In this document: in pieces, positions 1,369 through 49,018 of the stretch
Position numbering within the stretch: position 1 is the first letter of the stretch
How the letters are laid out: each line of letters begins with the position of its first letter
From: Candidatus Babeliales bacterium
GTDB taxonomy: Bacteria; Babelota; Babeliae; Babelales; JABDEC01
DNA: 64,000 bases
NCBI GenBank assembly: GCA_031292305.1
Contig: JARLHJ010000045.1
Span: forward strand, 6,791 to 70,790
Direction: 5' to 3'
The notes under the pieces: generated by a model
Databases searched by the model: none
The model's input: only the letters and a program-made list of their open reading frames with translations
Told to the model about the DNA's origin: nothing
Position numbers and translations under genes: made by a program

Positions 1369-2193
1369 TCATTCCATTGTTTCTTGCACTGGACCTAAAC
1401 ATATACATAATTTACGTAACACCTTAGTTGCAAGAATACAACATAAGCAGCAAGTGGTAAAACAACAAGTACAACATTTTCTGATTTTGCTTGTATCATC
1501 TAAAATATATTTTGATTTTGCCTTACATTTACTATCATGATTCATTTTATGATTAGGTTGTAAGCAATTCCAACAAAAGTTATGATCACATCTAATGCAT
1601 TTCATATGATCACAACCAGACTCTTTTTCAATATATTCGTGGCATTTAGGACATTGCTTAGTATTTTGGTGCATTAATTTTAATAAGCTACGATTAAATT
1701 CTAAATCGCGTGCTTGTTGGCACGTAGTAAATTTATTGTGTAAAATTAAACAATTTTGACAGTAAGAATGAGAACAATTTGGACATTTTTTTGTTTTACC
1801 ATCGATAATAAATGCATAATTACAATTTGGTGTTGGACAATGTCGATAATTTTTTTGAGATTGCAATGATTCCATATATTTAATTTTATTAAACTTATTA
1901 AATAATTCATCATTGTTGTCAGTGATTGAGTTTATGTCAGTTTCATCTAGTTTTATTTTACATTTTTGATTTGGACAGCATAGCATGCGAGTCTGTTTTT
2001 CTTTTAAACTCAATTTAACCATTTGTTGAAGACAAACTTTGCAATATTTATGTTCGCAAGTTAATTTAATCATAAATGCTTTTTGAGTTTGAGACCAGCA
2101 AATATCACAATTTTCATATGAGGGAATTGAATTATCTAAACATAAAATTTGAGTATAAAAAATTAAAGTTAATAAAAAATATTTTAAATTCAT
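1369..2193 (-). CDS. Secreted RBR (RING1-IBR-RING2) E3 ubiquitin ligase-like protein
   Basis: Signal peptide; RING1 CDIC..CEHKYCKVC..CPNQKC; IBR CPTPNC..CPNCSHSYCQNC..H..C; RING2 CPKC..GCDHMKC.RC.H.FCWNC; Cys-rich tail. Confidence 0.9.
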   Translation of the reverse strand: MNLKYFLLTLIFYTQILCLDNSIPSYENCDICWSQTQKAFMIKLTCEHKYCKVCLQQMVKLSLKEKQTRMLCCPNQKCKIKLDETDINSITDNNDELFNKFNKIKYMESLQSQKNYRHCPTPNCNYAFIIDGKTKKCPNCSHSYCQNCLILHNKFTTCQQARDLEFNRSLLKLMHQNTKQCPKCHEYIEKESGCDHMKCIRCDHNFCWNCLQPNHKMNHDSKCKAKSKYILDDTSKIRKCCTCCFTTCCLCCILATKVLRKLCICLGPVQETME

Positions 2194-3498: not shown

Positions 3499-4656
3499 AT
3501 GATTACATTCATTATTATTATGGCAGTAAGTTTAGTTCTAATTGGGGGAACAATGAAATCTAAAGATAAAAAAATGGATTGCAAAGATGGCGTATGTTCA
3601 ATAGAACAAGTTAATAGTGCGCCTGTAAAAGTTGAAGAAGCAAGTGTTCAAGAGAATTCAGTTATAGAAGTAAACAGTAATAATTTTGAACAAGTTGTTA
3701 TAAATTCTACAAAGCCAGTAATTGTTGATTTTTATGCAACTTGGTGCCCACCATGTAAGGCAATTAAGCCGGTGTATGCGCAACTTGCTCAAGAACAAAC
3801 AGATTGGGTTTTTACTGCATTAGATGTTGACCAAGCTCCGGACATTATGTCCAATTGTGGTGTTAAAGCAATGCCTACTTTTGTAATTTTTAAAAATGGA
3901 ATTCAATTAGGTTCAATAGAAGGTGGCCGACCAAAAGACCAATTGTTCGACGAAATTAAAAAAATTATTGATTTAGGTATACCACAGGTTCCATCAAAAG
4001 AAGCTCTTACTCAAAGCTTGATTATGCAAATCTGTACTAAAAGTATAGAAGGTGTAAAAAAAGCTATAAATGACGGGGCTGATTTAAATGGCACCTGGCA
4101 AACACCATATGGAGATTTCTTTCCTTTAAAATCTGCTATAACTTCTGGTACAGATGAAATTGTAGATTTATTACTTAAGTCTGGTGCAATAATAAATTCT
4201 GACTTAGAGCAAAATATAAATTTAGATATTGAAAAATACAATAAAAGCATAGAAGTATTGAAACAAACTTTACAATATGCAAAAGATAAAATTAAATCTT
4301 TGCCTAATGAAATTAAGCAAGATGTGAAATTAGATGGTCAAGAACTTCGTCAAGAGTTTTTTATTGGAATGTCTGATATTACCAAACTTAAAAGTCTAAT
4401 TGATTCTGGTGCTAACGCTAATCTTCTTTTTGTAGTAGATAAAATAGAAGTTACGCCTTTGTATTTTGCAATAATGTTAAACAATATTCCGGCAATAGAT
4501 TTACTTATAAATGCTGGCGCTTCTTTGCAAGTAGAAGGCAAAAATGCTGCAGGCAATCGCAAATCTATAGAATTATTAGCTGAAGAGTACATGCAACAGT
4601 CTAATAGTGAAATGTTAAATGCTAAAAAACGTTTAGATCGAATTTTAAATAAATAA
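3499..4656 (+). CDS. Membrane-anchored thioredoxin fused to ankyrin-like repeats
   Basis: N-terminal TM; VDFYATWCPPCK; later PLKSAI..IVDLLLKSGA and TPLYFAI..IDLLINAGA ankyrin-like motifs. Confidence 0.8.
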   Translation: MITFIIIMAVSLVLIGGTMKSKDKKMDCKDGVCSIEQVNSAPVKVEEASVQENSVIEVNSNNFEQVVINSTKPVIVDFYATWCPPCKAIKPVYAQLAQEQTDWVFTALDVDQAPDIMSNCGVKAMPTFVIFKNGIQLGSIEGGRPKDQLFDEIKKIIDLGIPQVPSKEALTQSLIMQICTKSIEGVKKAINDGADLNGTWQTPYGDFFPLKSAITSGTDEIVDLLLKSGAIINSDLEQNINLDIEKYNKSIEVLKQTLQYAKDKIKSLPNEIKQDVKLDGQELRQEFFIGMSDITKLKSLIDSGANANLLFVVDKIEVTPLYFAIMLNNIPAIDLLINAGASLQVEGKNAAGNRKSIELLAEEYMQQSNSEMLNAKKRLDRILNK

Positions 4657-6531: not shown

Positions 6532-7239
6532 ATGAAAAATTTACTTTTTATATTTAGTTTATTGGTTTCTACAAATTTATTACCGTTTGGCATGGCAGTT
6601 GTTAAACTAGGTAATAATACAAAAACTGTTTTAAAAACTACAGCATTATTAACAGCAGCTTATTATAGTTGTGTTTACGGCACAAAAGCTTATAACTATA
6701 TTTTAACTAAAATAGATGAAAAAAGTGAAAAAGAAATAGTTAGATTGATAGAACTGCAATTTAAATTGAACCCGCAATGCAATGATCAAGAATTAAGAGA
6801 TAAAGCATGGTCAATAAACCTGAGAAAGTGTATTTTAGACAAATTAGACCAAATAGATAGTTCGGATCCTCGTTGGTCACAAAATTTTCAAGATGCTTTA
6901 AGTAAGCTGCAAAAAAGTTTTAAAACCTTTGATACAGTAAGAAGTGTTATTAACACAGTAACAGTACATGTTTTAGAAAATAATCGTGAAAAAGAATATG
7001 ATAAACCATATGAAGAATTATCTTATTTTGATCAATATTTAGTTCATATAATTGTTAATAATACATTATTAAAATATAAACCTAATAATGAGTGTAGTGC
7101 TTCTGAAAAAGCTAAAAAAATTGAAATGGAAGCAAGCTCGGAAAGAATTAATAAAATTCTTAAAAATGACTTGCTAAGCTTTGCTGCAAAAGCAGCAGTA
7201 AGTACAGCAGCTGGTGCATTTATGACATTTATACTTTAA
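6532..7239 (+). CDS. Secreted/membrane hypothetical protein, paralog A
   Basis: Signal peptide; shares ELRDKAW.IN.RKC, SD.RWS and LLKYKP with 7432..8157. Confidence 0.8.
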   Translation: MKNLLFIFSLLVSTNLLPFGMAVVKLGNNTKTVLKTTALLTAAYYSCVYGTKAYNYILTKIDEKSEKEIVRLIELQFKLNPQCNDQELRDKAWSINLRKCILDKLDQIDSSDPRWSQNFQDALSKLQKSFKTFDTVRSVINTVTVHVLENNREKEYDKPYEELSYFDQYLVHIIVNNTLLKYKPNNECSASEKAKKIEMEASSERINKILKNDLLSFAAKAAVSTAAGAFMTFIL

Positions 7240-7431: not shown

Positions 7432-8157
7432 ATGAAAAAGTTAATTTTAGTACTAAGTATGGTATTTGTCCCAAATCTATTATCTTTAAATTTAGATATA
7501 GCTTCTTTAAAGACAAGTATTGAAACTAGTTTGCAAGCAATTAAAGACAAAGGTATTACTTTAACTGATAATCAAAAATCAGGTTTGCAGATAGTTGGGG
7601 TTCTTTGCGGTGCTTATTTAGGATATAATTTAATTAAAAAATCTTATTCATCTTTAAAAAGTAATATAGAACAAGAATTTGAAAATAAGTTTGTGCATTT
7701 AATTAAGTTGCAGTTTCAATCAAATAAAAATTGTTCAGATTCAGAATTACGTGACAAAGCTTGGGCAATAAATATTAGAAAGTGCCTTAAGCAAAAATTG
7801 AGCGAAATATCTTCTAGTGATTCAAGATGGTCAACTCATTTTGATAAAGCATTAAAGAAATTTATCGCGACTTTTATAATTGTGGACACAACAAGAAGTA
7901 TGTTAAAAAGCTTAGGTAATAAATATGAGCAAGAATATACTAAAACTTATGAACAATTAAGTTATATAGACAAAAAGTTAGTTGATACCTTGGTTAATAA
8001 TATTTTATTAAAATATAAACCTGAAAATTTATGCACTGAACAAGAAAAGTTAAAGAAACAAGAAATAAAAGAAAGAGCGCATAGAATTCAAGAGAAGCTT
8101 AAAATTGAATTAGTTAAAGGTCAATTAGCTAAATCTTTCTTAGATATAGTAATTTAA
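7432..8157 (+). CDS. Secreted/membrane hypothetical protein, paralog B
   Basis: Signal peptide; RBS GGAGG; paralogous to 6532..7239. Confidence 0.8.
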   Translation: MKKLILVLSMVFVPNLLSLNLDIASLKTSIETSLQAIKDKGITLTDNQKSGLQIVGVLCGAYLGYNLIKKSYSSLKSNIEQEFENKFVHLIKLQFQSNKNCSDSELRDKAWAINIRKCLKQKLSEISSSDSRWSTHFDKALKKFIATFIIVDTTRSMLKSLGNKYEQEYTKTYEQLSYIDKKLVDTLVNNILLKYKPENLCTEQEKLKKQEIKERAHRIQEKLKIELVKGQLAKSFLDIVI

Positions 8158-8223: not shown

Positions 8224-10203
8224 TTATCCTGCTTTGATCAACTCGCGGGCATCGTTTAATATTGTATTATCAAAATCTTTAGACTGCAAAATTTCTATAG
8301 ATAAATTTTGATCAGATGAACCTTTAGATAATAAATAATCATAAGTTATTTTATTGTCAGCATCTATTTGTGCCACGACTTTATAGTTAGCAAAATTTTT
8401 GCTTTCAGCTTCTAGTTCACTAAGCTTAGGAAAATGTGTGGATAATAAACAAAGATTGTTGTCATATTTGGCAAAGTTTTTTGCAATACTATAAGAAAGC
8501 GCTTGTGCGAATGACTCTTTTGTACCATTAAGAGGTTCATCAAGTAGCATAAACCAAAACTGGTTATGCTTTAATGGCTTAATCTCATTCATTAAAAATG
8601 TAATGCGATTTGCTTGAGCTTCATATAATGAATGGCCTTCTGATATATCATCAGTGATATTCATGTATGTTCCCAGTTTATTAAATATTGTTAAATTTAT
8701 TGAGCTTGCAGGTGCAATACCAAAAGTTTGAGCTAGAATAATATTTAAAGCAATTGATCTAGTAATAGTAGATTTGCCACCTCTATTGGTACCTGTAATA
8801 ACAATATTACGAGCATCATCATTAAGGCCAAAAGATATAGAGTTTGTTACAACTTTAGATTCGTCAATTATTGGGTTCCAGAAATTTTCTAAAGCTATAA
8901 ATGGCGTTTTTGCTTCACTGAATTTTGCAAAAGAATATTTAACATTTTTAGTTTCGTATTCTTTATAAAGCTTTGCAACAGAAGTGAATGCTTCAATTTG
9001 ACCCAACACAGATAACATTACGGTAAATTCGCTTTTTAAATCATTAAACATTTTAAATGTTTTTAATATTTTGCCCCAATTAGAAAAAATTGATGGTGAC
9101 CCTGTGAAGGTATTAGTTTTTAATAGTTCTAATAGCGTTTGCACTTCTTTCGTGTTTGTAACTATTTTAGCCACATCTAATGTGTTATAAATAACAGGAT
9201 ATTCAACTAATTTTTTACTAATTTCAGATGCTATAGTTAAAAAGCTATTGGCATGTATAAGTTTTTCTTGTAAATATTTTAACACTGCAAAATTATCAAC
9301 AATACTTTCAAAATCGCTTTTTGCACTTGTAGCTGCATGCATACCTGCAAATAAAGCCGCCGCCCCTTGGATTTGATTATTATCAATTATTGAAGTTAAT
9401 CCCAGCAATGCATCACCTGAACTTATTAATCTTTCACTTAATAATGTAAAATTATTATTCCGATTTTGATCTAAAATTTTAGAGATACCATATATAGGCA
9501 ATGCTACAGTGGCTATTGCTTTTGCTAAAAATAGAACAATACGTTTTTGGTGATCTAATGTATTTTTTATGCCTAAGCTAATTTCAGATTTATTTAGATC
9601 TTTATTAAAATTTATATATTGATTTTCAATAACTTCTTGTAATGGATCATTTGAATAAAATGAAAGAAATAGATTTTCATACTTTTGTAGTTCAGTAAAT
9701 TTGGCATCTAGAAATGTATATAATGTTGGATTATTAATAATAGTTTTTAATATTTCTTGGCGTTTTAACAAAATATCTAAATCATTGGTAGATTGAGCCA
9801 GCATTATATTAAAACTAATTTTGCCTAGTGTTGTATAAGTTCTATCAATTCTTTGTGCAAAATTTAATGCCTTTTTATTCTTTAAATTTCGAAATAAGCT
9901 TAAATCATCCCAAACAATTGTATCTATTATTAGATTACTTTCTGGTGGCAAGTTATACTTTTTTGATTCATCTAAAAGATCAAAAACAGTTGTTGTTTTT
10001 GTTATTGGTTTAAGATTGCGTTGTAGATTTGTAGCATTTGTTAAAAATTCATTAAATGACCAATCTTTATCTACATGTAAAGAATCACATTCCCATGTAA
10101 AATTGGATAGAAAATGTTCTTCTGTTTTGCTTACCATTGAATTTTTATCAGCTAAAACTGAGTAAAAGTTGAACAGTAGTGCTAGTATTATAAATGGGTT
10201 CAT
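8224..10203 (-). CDS. MutS-related ATPase (domain III remnant plus domain V) with N-terminal signal peptide
   Basis: ITGTNRGGKST, ILAQTFG, DDISEGHS, LLDEPLNGT, STHF; no mismatch-binding GxFYE motif. Confidence 0.88.
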   Translation of the reverse strand: MNPFIILALLFNFYSVLADKNSMVSKTEEHFLSNFTWECDSLHVDKDWSFNEFLTNATNLQRNLKPITKTTTVFDLLDESKKYNLPPESNLIIDTIVWDDLSLFRNLKNKKALNFAQRIDRTYTTLGKISFNIMLAQSTNDLDILLKRQEILKTIINNPTLYTFLDAKFTELQKYENLFLSFYSNDPLQEVIENQYINFNKDLNKSEISLGIKNTLDHQKRIVLFLAKAIATVALPIYGISKILDQNRNNNFTLLSERLISSGDALLGLTSIIDNNQIQGAAALFAGMHAATSAKSDFESIVDNFAVLKYLQEKLIHANSFLTIASEISKKLVEYPVIYNTLDVAKIVTNTKEVQTLLELLKTNTFTGSPSIFSNWGKILKTFKMFNDLKSEFTVMLSVLGQIEAFTSVAKLYKEYETKNVKYSFAKFSEAKTPFIALENFWNPIIDESKVVTNSISFGLNDDARNIVITGTNRGGKSTITRSIALNIILAQTFGIAPASSINLTIFNKLGTYMNITDDISEGHSLYEAQANRITFLMNEIKPLKHNQFWFMLLDEPLNGTKESFAQALSYSIAKNFAKYDNNLCLLSTHFPKLSELEAESKNFANYKVVAQIDADNKITYDYLLSKGSSDQNLSIEILQSKDFDNTILNDARELIKAG

Positions 10204-12637: not shown

Positions 12638-13465
12638 ATGAAAAGATTTATAATATATAATTTTAGTATTTTATTTTTTATAAATATAACTGCACAATCT
12701 TTAGAGTCTGTAAAAAGTGATGAAGAGGAATACGCAGTTTCACTTTTAAACAAAGATGAAAATTTTACATACAATATTGAGCGTAATTCTAAAGAAGAAA
12801 CATTGGTAGTAAGTATTGGTGGTGCTTGCTTAGCTGCAATTCAAATTTATAATCTAGGATTGCGTAAAGCAGCATATCCATTTGATGTTATTTATTCAGA
12901 CTTAGATGGAATTATTAATGCAATAAAAACTGACTTTGCTTATTTTATAGATATAAAATATTTAACCAGAAAACGGTTTAATAATAAATATCATTTGTAT
13001 AACCCAAGTTACAATTTTATTTTTCCGCATGATTTACATTCAGATAATGGCAAGAAATTGAATTTAAAATATGAACGTGAAAAGATTATAGATTTTCAAG
13101 AAAAATATAAGCGTCGAATTGCGCGATTTAAAGATCTAGAAAATTTTAAAGGAAAAGTATATTTTTTAAGAACATATTCTAAAAATGTCCAACCAGATAC
13201 AATCGGTAATCTTATAAAATTAAGAGATCTTATTTCTAAAAAATTTCCAAAATTAAATTTTGAAATTATTGTTGTAACACTAGTTTCTAAAGAAGTTAAA
13301 CAAGAGATACCAGAGTTAATTAAATATTTCTATGCTAATGATTTGGGATTATTTTCAAAAAAAGCTGAGCAAAATTTTTATAATATATTTAATTTATTAG
13401 AAATAAAAATGTCGCCACTAAAACCTACAAGTTTCTTTTATGTAGCAAATAAACGTACTTTTTAA
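12638..13465 (+). CDS. DUF1796-family putative papain-like cysteine peptidase, secreted
   Basis: Signal peptide; SIGGAC, GLRKAAYPFD, FPHD, KYKRRIARF motifs. Confidence 0.7.
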   Translation: MKRFIIYNFSILFFINITAQSLESVKSDEEEYAVSLLNKDENFTYNIERNSKEETLVVSIGGACLAAIQIYNLGLRKAAYPFDVIYSDLDGIINAIKTDFAYFIDIKYLTRKRFNNKYHLYNPSYNFIFPHDLHSDNGKKLNLKYEREKIIDFQEKYKRRIARFKDLENFKGKVYFLRTYSKNVQPDTIGNLIKLRDLISKKFPKLNFEIIVVTLVSKEVKQEIPELIKYFYANDLGLFSKKAEQNFYNIFNLLEIKMSPLKPTSFFYVANKRTF

Positions 13466-13471
13466 GTAATA

Positions 13472-14962
13472 TCAATTTTCGCTAAAATCTTGAGCCTCAA
13501 ATACTTGAAAAGTAGTTTTGGCAGACTTGTAACCATCTTTAGAAAGACCTGCTTTTAGGCTAAGCTGTTCTAATGTTTGCGTTAAATTAAAACCAAATTC
13601 TTGTGGCACTTTAGGCAAAAAGAGTGAAATATTTTTTCCATGTTGTAGAATTATGCCATGTTTATTTAAAATAATTTTTTTGTAAGATTTAATAGGTTTA
13701 GGTTTTTGCAAAACTGAAATTTCAATAATAATATTTTTTAAATCTTCTTGTTTTAGTCGCGTAAATCTGCTGTCGCGAAATGCAGCATCTAAACTTTTTT
13801 CTGCTATCGTTAAATATAATGATTTTGTTGGGTTTACTTGACCAATACAGCCCCGTAATTTTTTTTTACCATTTTCATCTTTTGACCACAGTGTTACAAA
13901 TGCTCCTTGGCTTCTTTCTAATAATGGCGTCATTATTGGTTCAGATAAATCTTTATTAACTTCTTTGGTAAATGCTTGTTCTAACGTTTGCCTTGCATAA
14001 GCTAATAATGATTTTTGTTCTTGCATGTTTAATATATTATTATCAACGTCATTCGTAACAACAAGGCTTGCATAACTTACTACATTATTTTCATCATTAG
14101 TTTTATCAAATGATGTACCATATGAAACTAATCTTGTAGAGCTATTGGCAAAAGTATCTAACTTAATGCATTCTAATAATATTCGTAATGGATTGTACCC
14201 ACAGACTGTATCTTTTGTTTTATTTATCATACTTTGAAACAGCTTTAAATTTTGACGTTGAATAGTATTTAAAACAGCTGAATCTAATTGGGTAATATTT
14301 AATAAAATATTATCTTTAAATGGTATGTAGTTAAAAGATTTTCCGTAATGTGTAAAATCTGTACTTATTATCAGTAATGTTTTTTTAGTTACAATCTTTT
14401 TCAAAAGTAGGGCAATTTCATTAACATTTTCATCTGTTATGTTGCCTATAATAATTGGTACTATCTTTGCTTTTGGTAAAGTGAATTGGATGAATGGTAA
14501 TTGCATTTCTATTGAATGTTCTGGCTTAAAAAATGCATCATTGCAGGTAACTAATGGCTTATCTTTTAGTTTTTTTACAGACGGTAAGTCAACATTCATT
14601 ATACCTAATGGGGTTTGGTATTTTTCAAATTTTGGTATGGCAATTCCATTAAATCTAACGTAATGTGACGGTCCTAAAATTATTACTTTATCTATTTTAT
14701 TCTTATCTAAGAGTTGGTATGAAGCAGCAGAAACTTTTCCAGAATATTCATAACCTGCATGTGGACAAATTAAGGCACGAATTTGTGGGCTATTAGTTTG
14801 CATGCCAAATTCATTTTTAGCTTGCATAGTTAATTTCTGCAAAAGATCTGTAAGTTCTTTTTTATCTTTTGGATACCAGTTACCCGCACGGTGTGCTTGA
14901 AAGGTCTCGCAGTTAAGGTTTATTATTAATGTAAATATAAAATATATAAAAAAATTTATCAT
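13472..14962 (-). CDS. AmmeMemoRadiSam protein B (Memo) / protein A (AMMECR1) fusion
   Basis: AGNWYP, PHAGYEYSG, GPSH, EHSIEMQLPF, STDFTHYG; C-terminal GAFVT..LRGCIG..AAFRDSRF; hydrophobic N-terminus. Confidence 0.92.
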   Translation of the reverse strand: MINFFIYFIFTLIINLNCETFQAHRAGNWYPKDKKELTDLLQKLTMQAKNEFGMQTNSPQIRALICPHAGYEYSGKVSAASYQLLDKNKIDKVIILGPSHYVRFNGIAIPKFEKYQTPLGIMNVDLPSVKKLKDKPLVTCNDAFFKPEHSIEMQLPFIQFTLPKAKIVPIIIGNITDENVNEIALLLKKIVTKKTLLIISTDFTHYGKSFNYIPFKDNILLNITQLDSAVLNTIQRQNLKLFQSMINKTKDTVCGYNPLRILLECIKLDTFANSSTRLVSYGTSFDKTNDENNVVSYASLVVTNDVDNNILNMQEQKSLLAYARQTLEQAFTKEVNKDLSEPIMTPLLERSQGAFVTLWSKDENGKKKLRGCIGQVNPTKSLYLTIAEKSLDAAFRDSRFTRLKQEDLKNIIIEISVLQKPKPIKSYKKIILNKHGIILQHGKNISLFLPKVPQEFGFNLTQTLEQLSLKAGLSKDGYKSAKTTFQVFEAQDFSEN

Positions 14963-17278: not shown

Positions 17279-18214
17279 TTATTTATAATTTCTTCTTAAT
17301 TTCTTAAGTTCAGCAAAAGAACTTTCTATATCTTCTTGCAAAATCTCTTTTCTTTTATTACGGCCAGCACGGGTTGCAGCTTTGTTTACTAAGTCATTAA
17401 TATCTGCACAATTAAAGCCTTCACTATTTTGTGCGTAATATTTAACATTTATTTTGGGATCAACTTTGCGATTATTTTTAAAAAGGTAATGTTGCAACAT
17501 TGCTTCTCTTTTTTGCATATCAGGCAATGGGATAGTTATTATATTATCAAATCTGCCTGCACGTAATAATGCTTCGTCTAATGAATCAACTCTATTTGTT
17601 GCAGCTATTATTGTAATGTTGTCGTTCTTTTCAAAGCCATCCATTTGAACGAGTAGCTCTGTTATTGTATTATTTCTTTCTGCATGTTCAAAAGCTCCTG
17701 AGGTTCTTTTGCCAAGTGCATCAAGTTCATCAATAAATATAATTGCCTTTTTGCCTTTTAATGTAGCATTTTCTGCCTGCTTAAATATTTCTCTAATTTT
17801 TAATGGTCCGCTGCCAACATATAATTCCATAAATTTACTAGCTGATGTATCAATTAATACTGCATCTAGTTCGCCGGCAATGGACTTTGCAATTAAAGTT
17901 TTACCACAACCTGGAGGGCCTACTAATAAAATACCTTTTGGTTTTTTAGCACCTGCATCTTTAAAAGCTTCATCATCTTGTAAGAATGCTTTTAAATCTG
18001 TAATTTCTTCAGGTACACCACCTATAATATCTTTGAATTTAATTGTGGTAGATTCAAAATCAGTATCTTTTGGCTTAGATGCATTTTTTACATTGCCTGT
18101 AAAAAGATTATATACAGCTTCTCTATTTTGTTTGTTAAATTCTGTCCAGGAATCAAAAATATTAGAGTAACAATTAACTGAGTAGCAAAGTAAAATTAAT
18201 AGTATTTTATTCAT
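17279..18214 (-). CDS. FtsH/CDC48-like AAA+ ATPase without protease domain, with signal peptide
   Basis: GPPGCGKT, IIFIDELD, MDGF, ATNR..LD.ALLRAGRFD; no HExxH domain. Confidence 0.9.
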   Translation of the reverse strand: MNKILLILLCYSVNCYSNIFDSWTEFNKQNREAVYNLFTGNVKNASKPKDTDFESTTIKFKDIIGGVPEEITDLKAFLQDDEAFKDAGAKKPKGILLVGPPGCGKTLIAKSIAGELDAVLIDTSASKFMELYVGSGPLKIREIFKQAENATLKGKKAIIFIDELDALGKRTSGAFEHAERNNTITELLVQMDGFEKNDNITIIAATNRVDSLDEALLRAGRFDNIITIPLPDMQKREAMLQHYLFKNNRKVDPKINVKYYAQNSEGFNCADINDLVNKAATRAGRNKRKEILQEDIESSFAELKKLRRNYK

Positions 18215-47263: not shown

Positions 47264-49018
47264 CTATTTCTTCGGTTTTATTGCTTTAGTTATGGCTACA
47301 GGTTTTAAAACCTTCATAACAGGCTTTACTATTGGCTTTTTTACAGGTATTAATGTTAAAACTTTTAAGTGAACAGCAGCCAATTTAGCTTTTGATGCAA
47401 TAACATTAGCCTTTATTTTACTAGCAGTGTTATTCACTTTCTTTACTGCTGCTGGTGTTTTGGCTTTACTTAAAGCAATTTTTGCCTCTGCTAATTTAGG
47501 TGCAGCAGCTTTAATAACTTGTGTAGTTGTTGATATTGCTTGTTTTAATGGTGCAGCCTGTTCTGCGGGTAAATTTGCTAAAGTTTTTGTAGCAGCTGTA
47601 ATTACTTTTTGAGTATTAGTGGTAACTGTTTTAGCGGATTCAATATTTGATGCAACTACAGGTGGTGTTGGGGCTACGCATTCACCCAGAGAATCTATAG
47701 TATCGCCTGCTGCACAACATTGATTAGCACCTTTAAGTGCAATTTGACCATTAGTACATTCCTCACAACTATTATCATTTAAAATGTATCCCGCGTCACA
47801 TGCTGAACATGTAGTCTTGTTTTGTGTAAAACAATTTAATATTGGTGTAGGGCTACAAACATTGCCACTTAAAGTATATCCTGTGTTACATTCAGAACAA
47901 GTAGTTTCATTCTGTGAAGAACAATTTGGTATTGGTGTAGCAGTACAAACATTTCCACTTAAACTATATCCTGTATTACATGCAGAACATGTAGCACCAA
48001 TCTGTGAAGAACAATTTGATATTGGTATAGCAGTACACGCATTCCCATTTAAACTATATCCTGAATTACATGCAGAACATGTCGTGCCATTCTGATTAGA
48101 ACAATTTGATATTGGTGTAGCAGTACAAACATTGCCACTTAAACTGTATCCTGTATTACATGCAGCACATGTAGTACCATTCTGATTAGAACAATTTAAT
48201 ATTGGTGTAGCAGTACAAACATTGCCACTTAAACTATATCCTGTATTACACGCAGAACATGTAGTACCATTCTGCGAAGAACAATTTTGTATTGGTGTTG
48301 CAGTACACGCATTACCATTTAAACTGTATCCTGTGTTACATGCAGCACACGTAGTACCATTCTGATTAGAACAATTTAATATTGGTGTAGCATTACACGC
48401 ATTGCCATTTAAAGTATATCCTGTATTACATGCAGAACACGTAGTTTCACTCTGTGAAGAACAGTTTGATATTGGTGTAGCAGTACACGCATTGCCACTT
48501 AAACTATATCCTGTGTTACATGCAGAACATGTAGCTCCATTCTGAGAAGAACAATTTGGTATTGGTGTTTGACATGTAGAGCCACTTAATATTTTACCTT
48601 GAGCTGCACAACTTGCGTCTGTTTCTTGGCATTTTAAACCGTCACTAGTTGCTTGCGCGCCTGGGCATGCCTGACACGTTGTACCAACTAATATTTTCCC
48701 ATCGGCTAAGCAACTTGAAGCTGTTGGCGGATAACAACTAATCTTAAGTTGGTTACTATTCCAAACTGGGTATGAAATTTGAATAGCAGTTGGACAAGTT
48801 GCTGATGTTGGCGAACATGGGCCACCGTTATTACTTCCGTTAAAAAACCCATTGGTAGTCTGAATGCTATAAGATTTTCCAGAAGGACAAAATTGAGTAC
48901 TCCCAACTGTTGCTGTTCCGATATTATTTCCATTGATATCATAAACAGGAATTGCGTTTATGTTCGTTAAAACAAAAAAAATACTAAATATTAAAATTAT
49001 TCGATTTTTTATTTTCAC
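47264..49018 (-). CDS. Cys-rich repeat surface protein 2 (9 x 30-aa repeats, same C-terminal module)
   Basis: GTG start with AAGGAG RBS; signal peptide (INA/IP); C-terminus nearly identical to protein 1. Confidence 0.88.
   Translation of the reverse strand: MKIKNRIILIFSIFFVLTNINAIPVYDINGNNIGTATVGSTQFCPSGKSYSIQTTNGFFNGSNNGGPCSPTSATCPTAIQISYPVWNSNQLKISCYPPTASSCLADGKILVGTTCQACPGAQATSDGLKCQETDASCAAQGKILSGSTCQTPIPNCSSQNGATCSACNTGYSLSGNACTATPISNCSSQSETTCSACNTGYTLNGNACNATPILNCSNQNGTTCAACNTGYSLNGNACTATPIQNCSSQNGTTCSACNTGYSLSGNVCTATPILNCSNQNGTTCAACNTGYSLSGNVCTATPISNCSNQNGTTCSACNSGYSLNGNACTAIPISNCSSQIGATCSACNTGYSLSGNVCTATPIPNCSSQNETTCSECNTGYTLSGNVCSPTPILNCFTQNKTTCSACDAGYILNDNSCEECTNGQIALKGANQCCAAGDTIDSLGECVAPTPPVVASNIESAKTVTTNTQKVITAATKTLANLPAEQAAPLKQAISTTTQVIKAAAPKLAEAKIALSKAKTPAAVKKVNNTASKIKANVIASKAKLAAVHLKVLTLIPVKKPIVKPVMKVLKPVAITKAIKPKK
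47762..48571 (-). repeat. Intragenic 90-bp tandem repeat, 9 copies
   Basis: Same unit as 45926-46285 (ATTGGTGTAGCAGTAC..TATCCTGTATTACATGCAG..). Confidence 0.92.

Follow-up and report, generated by a model that had tools for sequence, protein, structure and literature searches.

A predicted RBR-type ubiquitin ligase with a putative Sec signal and a cysteine-rich tail, probably acting in the host, from a family found across the Dependentiae

Why would a bacterium carry a ubiquitin ligase of eukaryotic type, and how might such an enzyme reach a cell that contains ubiquitin? The question is raised by a gene in a stretch of 64,000 nucleotides (hereafter the window) of the Candidatus Babeliales bacterium assembly GCA_031292305.1, contig JARLHJ010000045.1, positions 6,791 to 70,790. 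An earlier sequence-only reading of this DNA proposed that the gene encodes a complete RING1-IBR-RING2 (RBR) E3 ligase, acquired from a host, with an N-terminal export signal and a C-terminal cluster of cysteines. Our results place the gene in a diversified bacterial family, and we give a probability of roughly 60% to the interpretation that its product is a minimal Sec-exported RBR ligase that acts on the host through the host's own E1, E2 and ubiquitin, with its tail on a host membrane. The source is best explained as an obligate intracellular, protist-associated bacterium of the phylum Dependentiae (TM6); the phylum is so named because the NCBI protein TET05926.1, recorded as 'hypothetical protein [Candidatus Dependentiae bacterium]', is identical to the RBR open reading frame (ORF) of a genome of the same order (G209).

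The claim that this is a complete RBR protein with a catalytic cysteine and histidine is borne out by profile, sequence and structure comparisons. The profile search for IBR that had been suggested with the earlier reading returned Pfam IBR (PF01485) at E 1.1e-14 (54.7 bits, cut-off 24.3) in two stretches of the protein, the best of them residues 167-216, and the models IBR_1 (2.1e-10) and IBR_2 (2e-6) both covered RING2 residues 177-215. The IBR module proper is one of the two Pfam stretches, has invariant ligand columns from C119 to C158 in the family alignments, and scored 37.2 bits in the IBR family search of the bacterium's own genome. Among sequences of the PDB, ARIH2 came first (5.6e-20, 75 bits) in one unbroken alignment of residues 27-213, followed by ARIH1, HOIL-1, CUL9, HOIP and parkin. 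In total, 44 distinct PDB sequences reached E <= 0.01, those listed being RBR ligases or fragments of them, and the structure of RNF144A RING1 (1wim) was matched at E 0.0014.

An AlphaFold2 model built on a 40-sequence alignment agrees with this assignment. Its mean confidence (predicted local distance difference test, pLDDT) is 82.8, with values of 88-98 over residues 21-220 and 93-98 in RING1, and it contains the two linker helices that are expected in RBR proteins. In a Foldseek comparison with the PDB, the top matches were again RBR ligases, all at probability 1.00: ARIH2 (1.5e-12), ARIH1, HOIL-1, HOIP, RNF216 and parkin. The TM-scores were low (0.2-0.4), as expected for three domains joined by flexible linkers. 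Over the aligned residues 27-213, the order of RING1, IBR and RING2 is colinear with that of RBR ligases in both the model and the Foldseek matches.

Zinc ligands, assigned from the sequence and the family alignments, are intact at all 24 positions, eight in each of the three modules. In a 15-sequence alignment the RING1 cysteines are invariant, and H48, I31 and P74 are nearly so (90% or more); we take I31 and P74 to be the usual E2-contact positions. Gly193 and the predicted catalytic Cys194 are invariant in both the 15-sequence and the 40-sequence alignments (40/40). The earlier statement that autoinhibitory domains are missing also holds, as neither Pfam nor the structure model revealed an Ariadne, RING0, Ubl or UBA-type domain, and none was seen in the 33 Dependentiae homologues scanned. 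The C-terminal Ariadne domain (PF19422) had no Pfam match, just 49 low-confidence residues lie beyond RING2, and for want of that domain the protein falls outside the Ariadne family. Judged by sequence, it shows every testable feature of the RBR class, and ligase activity is predicted.

How widely is such a gene found in the phylum? A search for IBR covered 261 genomes of the phylum, all of one order and spread over 21 families, together with 14 control genomes. Matches occurred in 46 of the 261 (45 above the curated cut-off) and in none of the 14 controls; the positives make up 32 of the 189 high-quality genomes, or 31 of 145 when counted by genus. Several positive genomes are closed as single contigs and some hold up to 13 matches, while the genome under study has one IBR gene only, the one described here. 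From the Dependentiae loci 37 distinct RBR ORFs were extracted. Pfam, run on 33 of them after three partial ORFs and one weak ORF had been left out, found IBR in 32, ankyrin repeats in five and the Ariadne domain in none. The architectures vary: the homologue in genome G003 consists of a signal peptide, a linker rich in proline and alanine, and the RBR module, and that in G025 of a signal peptide, ankyrin repeats and the RBR module.

A HMMER search of 1.84 billion representative proteins gave 10,472 matches at E <= 1e-3 and 57 at E <= 1e-30. The closest homologue, P0002 (292 aa, 50% identity, E 2.7e-58, aligned from residue 2), ends in a cysteine-rich hydrophobic tail of its own. Scores of 105-214 bits and identities of 35-50% were reached by the nearest relatives, which are bacterial and for the most part have signal-like N-termini, compared with 75 bits for ARIH2. 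A profile of 40 family members scored 252-320 bits on family proteins, 174 bits on the next match, an unnamed JGI protein, and 104-161 bits on named Ariadne-type and related RBR proteins of plants. A word-index protein search with the single protein returned itself alone, a scan of genome contigs with a 5-sequence alignment found nothing, a scan of viral contigs found no close RBR relative with the patterns used, and a scan of metagenome contigs confirmed 274 of 597 candidates, the best at 34% identity.

We then placed the protein in a quick IQ-TREE phylogeny of 109 RBR cores, which comprised the window protein, 57 of the top 60 metagenome matches, 29 Dependentiae genome ORFs, 12 named eukaryotic proteins (plant Ariadne proteins and a few others) and 10 lower matches; eleven rows whose RBR match was below 120 profile positions had been dropped. 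The window protein groups with P0002 (Shimodaira-Hasegawa-like approximate likelihood ratio test, SH-aLRT, 99), and then with P0023 and P0044 (98). Metagenome matches are interleaved with Dependentiae genome genes, including seven identical or near-identical pairs, and 10 of the 12 named eukaryotes lie beyond a branch of support 93, the other two being long-branch rows inside an unresolved bacterial polytomy. The tree is that of a diversified bacterial family; it names no donor and proves no single origin. The description of the gene as host-acquired was therefore overstated, given its distribution in the phylum, its bacterial nearest relatives and its native G+C content at third codon positions (GC3), and any eukaryotic transfer must be old for the same reasons. 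The gene is not a lone recent acquisition.

Synteny with the same-family RBR homologue in G003 is absent, the neighbours there being an ORF that looks SufB/D-like by eye and a WD40-like gene. The latter encodes, directly after the RBR gene, a repeat protein with a signal peptide (L004:2216-3394, + strand; repeats judged by eye), and the G003 RBR homologue has two stretches that by eye resemble ubiquitin-interacting motifs.

The N-terminal export-type signal noticed earlier is common to the relatives and is predicted by a rule of our own making. Under this rule, a sequence must have K or R in its n-region, 11 or more consecutive uncharged residues that include a 10-residue Kyte-Doolittle window of at least 2.0, and small residues at -3 and -1. 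The N-terminus, MNLKYFLLTLIFYTQILC-LD, passes it with K4, a hydrophobic segment from Y5 to L17, and I16 and C18 at -3/-1 of the inferred cleavage site; the structure model has a helix at residues 4-17. An in-frame TAA stands 8 codons upstream of the ATG, and there is no ATG, GTG or TTG between this ATG and the first cysteine of RING1. With no other canonical start before RING1, a protein with an intact RING1 has to include the hydrophobic N-terminus. Since the alignment with P0002 begins at residue 2, the signal is common to both proteins. The rule is passed by 92 of the 150 nearest RBR relatives (97 with an alternative start) and by 23 of 30 complete Dependentiae RBR ORFs, compared with none of 14 named eukaryotic RBR proteins and 11 of 952 internal control segments. 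A first, cruder rule was dropped as too permissive (764 of 1392 ORFs of the genome passed), and a lipoprotein reading of C18 was rejected, as the preceding Q-I-L does not fit a lipobox and the cysteine is not kept in P0023 and P0044.

Two further observations concern such N-termini. A motif [ASGC]-M-[ED] closes the hydrophobic N-terminal region in 34 of the top 150 RBR matches (within P0002-P0150) and in 6 of the 37 Dependentiae genome RBR ORFs (loci L005, L023, L025, L027 and L028), compared with 23 of 2330 control windows and 23 of the 764 signal-like ORFs of this genome; it may be a signal for cleavage or sorting that is particular to the lineage, and its methionine could in some cases be the true start codon. 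Signal-like starts also occur in the window on protein types that are normally cytoplasmic (8224-10203, -; 54815-56482, +; 17279-18214, -; 13472-14962, -), which comprise two proteins with MutS domain V only, an AAA ATPase and a Memo+AMMECR1 fusion.

Components for export are present in the genome. SecA is encoded within the window, and family searches of the genome found five secretins and three strong matches to ATPases of type II secretion systems or type IV pili. Neither DsbA nor DsbB was found in the genome by searches that were positive in 8 and 6 of the 14 control genomes, respectively, so that a protein with 34 cysteines need not be oxidised in transit. The literature points the same way: type II secretion with two gspD copies is recorded for all TM6 genomes compared in PMC4776705, 79 of 126 ankyrin proteins of Babela have signal peptides and are called secreted in PMC4378268, and Sec is proposed for effectors of Chromulinavorax, whose cells lie within the host cytoplasm, in PMC6561590. 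Five secretin-domain genes are unusually many for a 1.5-Mb genome; four of them are clustered (G000:C21:17524-26800, +) and the other stands alone (C34:55931-56452, -).

The third element is the tail. The cysteine cluster reported earlier is real: residues 240-265 hold 10 of the 34 cysteines, with basic residues flanking the patch, and residues 239-252 read KCCTCCFTTCCLCC. No other of the 1392 ORFs in the genome has 6 or more cysteines within 14 residues. A cysteine-rich (at least 4 of 14) hydrophobic window occurs in four of the 150 nearest relatives, namely P0001 (the window protein), P0002, P0023 and P0044, which form one clade (support 98). The distances from the patch to RING2 and to the C-terminus differ among the four, so that the patch behaves like an independently conserved element. 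In the structure model the tail falls below pLDDT 50 and has a short helix at 249-255. For its best 19-residue segment, the Kyte-Doolittle mean is up to 1.89, and the apparent free energies of a Hessa-type scale sum to +1.1, the latter because cysteine is nearly neutral on that scale. A membrane patch with lipid modifications accounts for these properties better than a clean membrane helix does, though not decisively. We infer that the tail may be palmitoylated, an idea strengthened by the conservation of the patch within its clade and by its marginal propensity to span a membrane.

Would the enzyme find its partners at home? A family search found no E2 in the genome and no ubiquitin C-terminal hydrolase (UCH) deubiquitinase, the absence of each being weakly shown as neither family matched any control genome. 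One ORF elsewhere in the genome (G000:C18:7754-8296, +) has a signal-like start, MKRLIFIILIFLSS. Its two ubiquitin-like matches are weak, at 23.8 and 23.6 bits (cut-off 25.4), and its C-terminus lacks Gly-Gly; its product may be a secreted protein with ubiquitin-like domains in tandem. With no E2 and only this weak ubiquitin-like ORF without the terminal Gly-Gly, the RBR ligase would need components of the host.

We therefore propose the following course for a Sec-exported, host-acting ligase, in line with the probability given at the outset. The signal peptide would lead the unfolded chain through SecA/SecYEG, and release may follow by a secretin-based route across the outer membrane or in outer-membrane vesicles, as the literature on related bacteria suggests. 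Cultured Dependentiae live in the host cytoplasm, so that release there would place the protein in the host cytosol, where it would fold around its zinc ions. It is established for RBR ligases that ubiquitin passes from E2~ubiquitin to a RING2 cysteine as a thioester and from there to the substrate. Here RING1 would bind the host E2~ubiquitin, Cys194 of RING2 would accept the ubiquitin, and His196 would help it pass on to the substrate. Having no Ariadne-, RING0- or UBA-type autoinhibitory domain, the enzyme is probably constitutively active. Host DHHC enzymes would most likely S-acylate the cysteine-string patch, which would then keep the ligase at a host membrane; this attachment would set where, and hence on what, the ligase acts.

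Several observations weigh against this proposal. Although the signal is a real sequence feature kept in the family, it is very common in this genome: the strict rule is passed by 635 of 1392 ORFs (46%), cytoplasmic pyrG among them, and the signal is for that reason weak evidence alone. The high rate matches the literature on the phylum, with 44% of Chromulinavorax coding sequences recorded as having signal peptides in PMC6561590. In the literature consulted, we found no demonstration that Sec substrates of Dependentiae cross the outer membrane, and no RNA run holding the gene was found among the sequencing runs listed. As regards the enzyme, RING1 had sub-cut-off matches alone to the Pfam RING models (weakly, zf-C3HC4 at E 0.014), the histidine two residues after the catalytic cysteine is present here as H196 and varies across the family, the third position of the triad is Asn205, which is neither Glu nor Gln, and Pfam recognised no substrate-binding domain in the protein. 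As regards the tail, Kyte-Doolittle values of 1.6-1.9 lie in the range of membrane helices, and once the signal has been cleaved, the hydrophobic tail could still keep the protein anchored in the bacterial inner membrane.

The last point leads to the alternative that survives best, which we nevertheless consider unlikely. The RBR domain could be exported with the tail serving as a stop-transfer segment or a disulfide-linked anchor, in the periplasm or at the bacterial surface; in the surface-anchored version, the domain could modify host proteins only at points of contact with the bacterium. Such an anchor is favoured by Kyte-Doolittle values of 1.8-1.9 in the best 19-residue windows of the tail, by the basic residues that flank the patch, and by the clearer C-terminal hydrophobic segments of several relatives. 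However, the sum of +1.1 on the Hessa-type scale is marginal for insertion, and the patch lies far from the C-terminus in P0023 and P0044. In addition, a periplasmic RBR would be without E2 or ubiquitin, no E2 having been found in the genome, and yet the catalytic residues are conserved.

Conservation of these residues also bears on a second alternative, which is less probable still: that the protein is a non-catalytic decoy, binding host E2~ubiquitin or ubiquitin and blocking host pathways without ubiquitin transfer. The variation within the family of the histidine and of the third triad position, and the want of a substrate-binding domain, would be compatible with such a role. However, Cys194 and Gly193 do not vary in any of the 40 aligned members, His196 is kept in this protein, and no zinc ligand has been lost.

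A third concern is whether the gene belongs to the bacterium at all. It stands about 8 kb inside a contig that is about 76 kb long and also carries pyrG, secA, ftsA, ftsZ and other bacterial genes, in a draft genome of 1.53 Mb (47 contigs, 92% complete, 4.6% estimated contamination). Its G+C content is 0.269, compared with 0.30 for the genome, and its GC3 of 0.182 falls within the range of the neighbouring genes (0.168-0.219). The stretch is present in four DNA runs from a single bioreactor-metagenome study, and per-run contigs from three runs extend across both gene ends (3' junction, 1123-1486; 5' junction, 1395-2446) with 0 differences; as the four runs may be the source samples, this bridging is consistency and not independent confirmation. 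The gene is not contamination: the possibility of a chimeric eukaryotic contaminant, raised with the sequence-only reading, fails on the bacterial neighbours, the native GC3, the bridged gene ends and the presence of the family in the phylum. RBR ligases are overwhelmingly eukaryotic, the draft is in 47 contigs with 4.56% estimated contamination, and the runs come from a single study that may be its source. Even so, it is very improbable that the gene was taken up recently from the present host, or that eukaryotic DNA was wrongly binned with the contig or wrongly joined to it. These possibilities are largely refuted by the bacterial housekeeping genes around the gene, its native base composition, the bridged junctions, relatives in closed single-contig genomes of the phylum, and bacterial nearest relatives at 35-50% identity.

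How does the predicted ligase compare with known ones? In both sequence and structure its best matches are ARIH2, ARIH1/HHARI (PDB 7od1, 5udh and 4kbl) and plant ARI, with which it has in common an end-to-end RBR over residues 27-213, the ligand pattern and the G-C-x-H-M segment. It differs from these Ariadne ligases in its size (274 aa, compared with about 500), in having neither an Ariadne domain nor an N-terminal acidic or UBA-like region, and in its signal peptide, cysteine-string tail and bacterial gene, and it stands apart from plant ARI in the tree (support 93). RNF144A/B, RNF217 and RNF19 are membrane-anchored minimal RBR ligases in which the RBR is followed by a C-terminal hydrophobic anchor. 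RNF144 and RNF217 resemble the window protein in size and layout, and they were the nearest named clusters by language-model features (RNF217 0.92, RNF144A 0.90); as they are absent from the tree, the likeness is one of layout and not of shown kinship. Their anchor differs from the tail of the window protein, a cysteine string whose propensity to form a membrane helix is marginal. Giant viruses, another class of protist parasites, also have RBR ligase genes, and a Nucleocytoviricota cluster was second-nearest by language-model features (0.92).

Among bacterial effectors, the E3 ligases GobX of Legionella and SspH2 of Salmonella are put on host membranes by host S-palmitoylation, according to PMC5780409. 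The same logic, a bacterial ligase acylated by the host on a host membrane, would putatively apply here by analogy. However, GobX (U-box) and SspH2 (NEL) are ligases of other catalytic classes and reach the host by type IV or type III injection rather than through Sec. Closer in lineage are the signal-peptide-bearing ankyrin, F-box, RING and C19 deubiquitinase proteins of Babela and Chromulinavorax, as given in PMC4378268 and PMC6561590, which have in common with the window protein the phylum, the logic of delivery by signal peptide and the ubiquitin-system theme. In the main texts of these two papers, supplements excluded and the term 'RBR' not looked up, 'ibr' occurs 0 times each, and the 'ring' matches displayed from the Babela paper (PMC4378268) were one RING-finger protein and mentions of the Z-ring.

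Eukaryote-like domains of the ubiquitin system are expected in amoeba-associated bacteria. Nevertheless, full-text literature searches, from which most subscription journals and supplements were excluded, found neither a bacterial RBR ligase nor an RBR or IBR protein in Dependentiae, and the sole match for 'bacterial Rbr' was rubrerythrin. In the reviews and papers sampled, RBR ligases are mentioned as host enzymes only, and the ligase effectors described for bacteria either mimic RING/U-box, F-box or HECT ligases or rely on folds of bacterial invention, NEL being one. The sequences of the family are already public as 'hypothetical protein' or 'IBR domain', and an RBR family that extends across the phylum, has Sec signals and includes a clade with its own cysteine string does not appear to have been described before.

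We speculate, in a tentative proposal that we would sooner doubt than accept in full, that Dependentiae have a large and diversified family of Sec-exported RBR proteins that are the first RBR-class E3 effectors of bacteria, in which the bare catalytic core would be constitutively active and retargeted by swapped-in modules: ankyrin repeats in some members and, in the four-member clade, a cysteine string acylated by host DHHC enzymes that pins the ligase on a host membrane. If this is true, cysteine-rich zinc-finger enzymes can reach a host by means of plain Sec signal peptides instead of injection systems. A natural set of small RBR cores that have no autoinhibitory domains would also be a simple system for the study of RBR catalysis and E2 choice, and the family could show how protist parasites of a little-known phylum rewire host ubiquitin signalling.

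Table 1. Features of the RBR gene, with positions in the window and residues of its product
Feature	Window position	Strand	Basis or content
Whole RBR gene, 274 aa	1369..2193	-	ORF list and translation; ATG start; stop codon 1369-1371
Layout: signal peptide, RING1-IBR-RING2, Cys-rich tail	1369..2193	-	Pfam IBR, PDB ARIH2, AlphaFold2 model, Foldseek
Signal-peptide-like N-terminus, residues 1-19	2137..2193	-	n-region MNLK; h-region YFLLTLIFYTQIL; small C18 before L19-D20
RING1, residues 27-80	1954..2115	-	Ligands C29 C32 C46 H48 C51 C54 C73 C78; aligned to ARIH2 RING1
Helical RING1-IBR linker, residues 84-111	1861..1944	-	Helices 84-90 and 95-111 in the model
IBR, residues 116-160	1714..1848	-	C6HC ligands C119 C124 C137 C140 C145 C148 H152 C158
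IBR-RING2 helix, residues 161-178	1660..1713	-	Helix 158-177 in the model
RING2/Rcat, residues 179-225	1519..1659	-	C181 C184 C199 C202; C207 C210 H215 (or H219) C223
Predicted catalytic Cys and general-base His, codons C194-D195-H196	1606..1614	-	SGCDHM aligned with GGCNHM of ARIH2
Cys-rich hydrophobic tail, residues 237-265, 10 Cys	1399..1485	-	KCCTCCFTTCCLCCILATKVLRKLCIC; composition, clade pattern

Around the gene, a promoter scan did no better than shuffled sequence (17 compared with 12.8 +/- 3.3), and neither a terminator nor a clear Shine-Dalgarno sequence was found at it. Other genes in the window deserve brief mention. Two genes away, a 385-aa protein (3499-4656, +) combines a hydrophobic N-terminus, a thioredoxin domain (1.5e-30) and C-terminal ankyrin repeats. 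Two adjacent ORFs (6532-7239 and 7432-8157, both +; 235 and 241 aa) have signal-like starts and no Pfam match above cut-off; both have the same sub-threshold match to the same part of the Methyltransf_29 profile, which suggests that they are paralogues. Finally, three genes have a eukaryotic flavour: an RPE65-type carotenoid oxygenase (43332-44918, +; 5.8e-107), a protein with a short BRINP-like match (47264-49018, -; 6.3e-7) and a DUF1796 papain-like peptidase (12638-13465, +; 9e-21).

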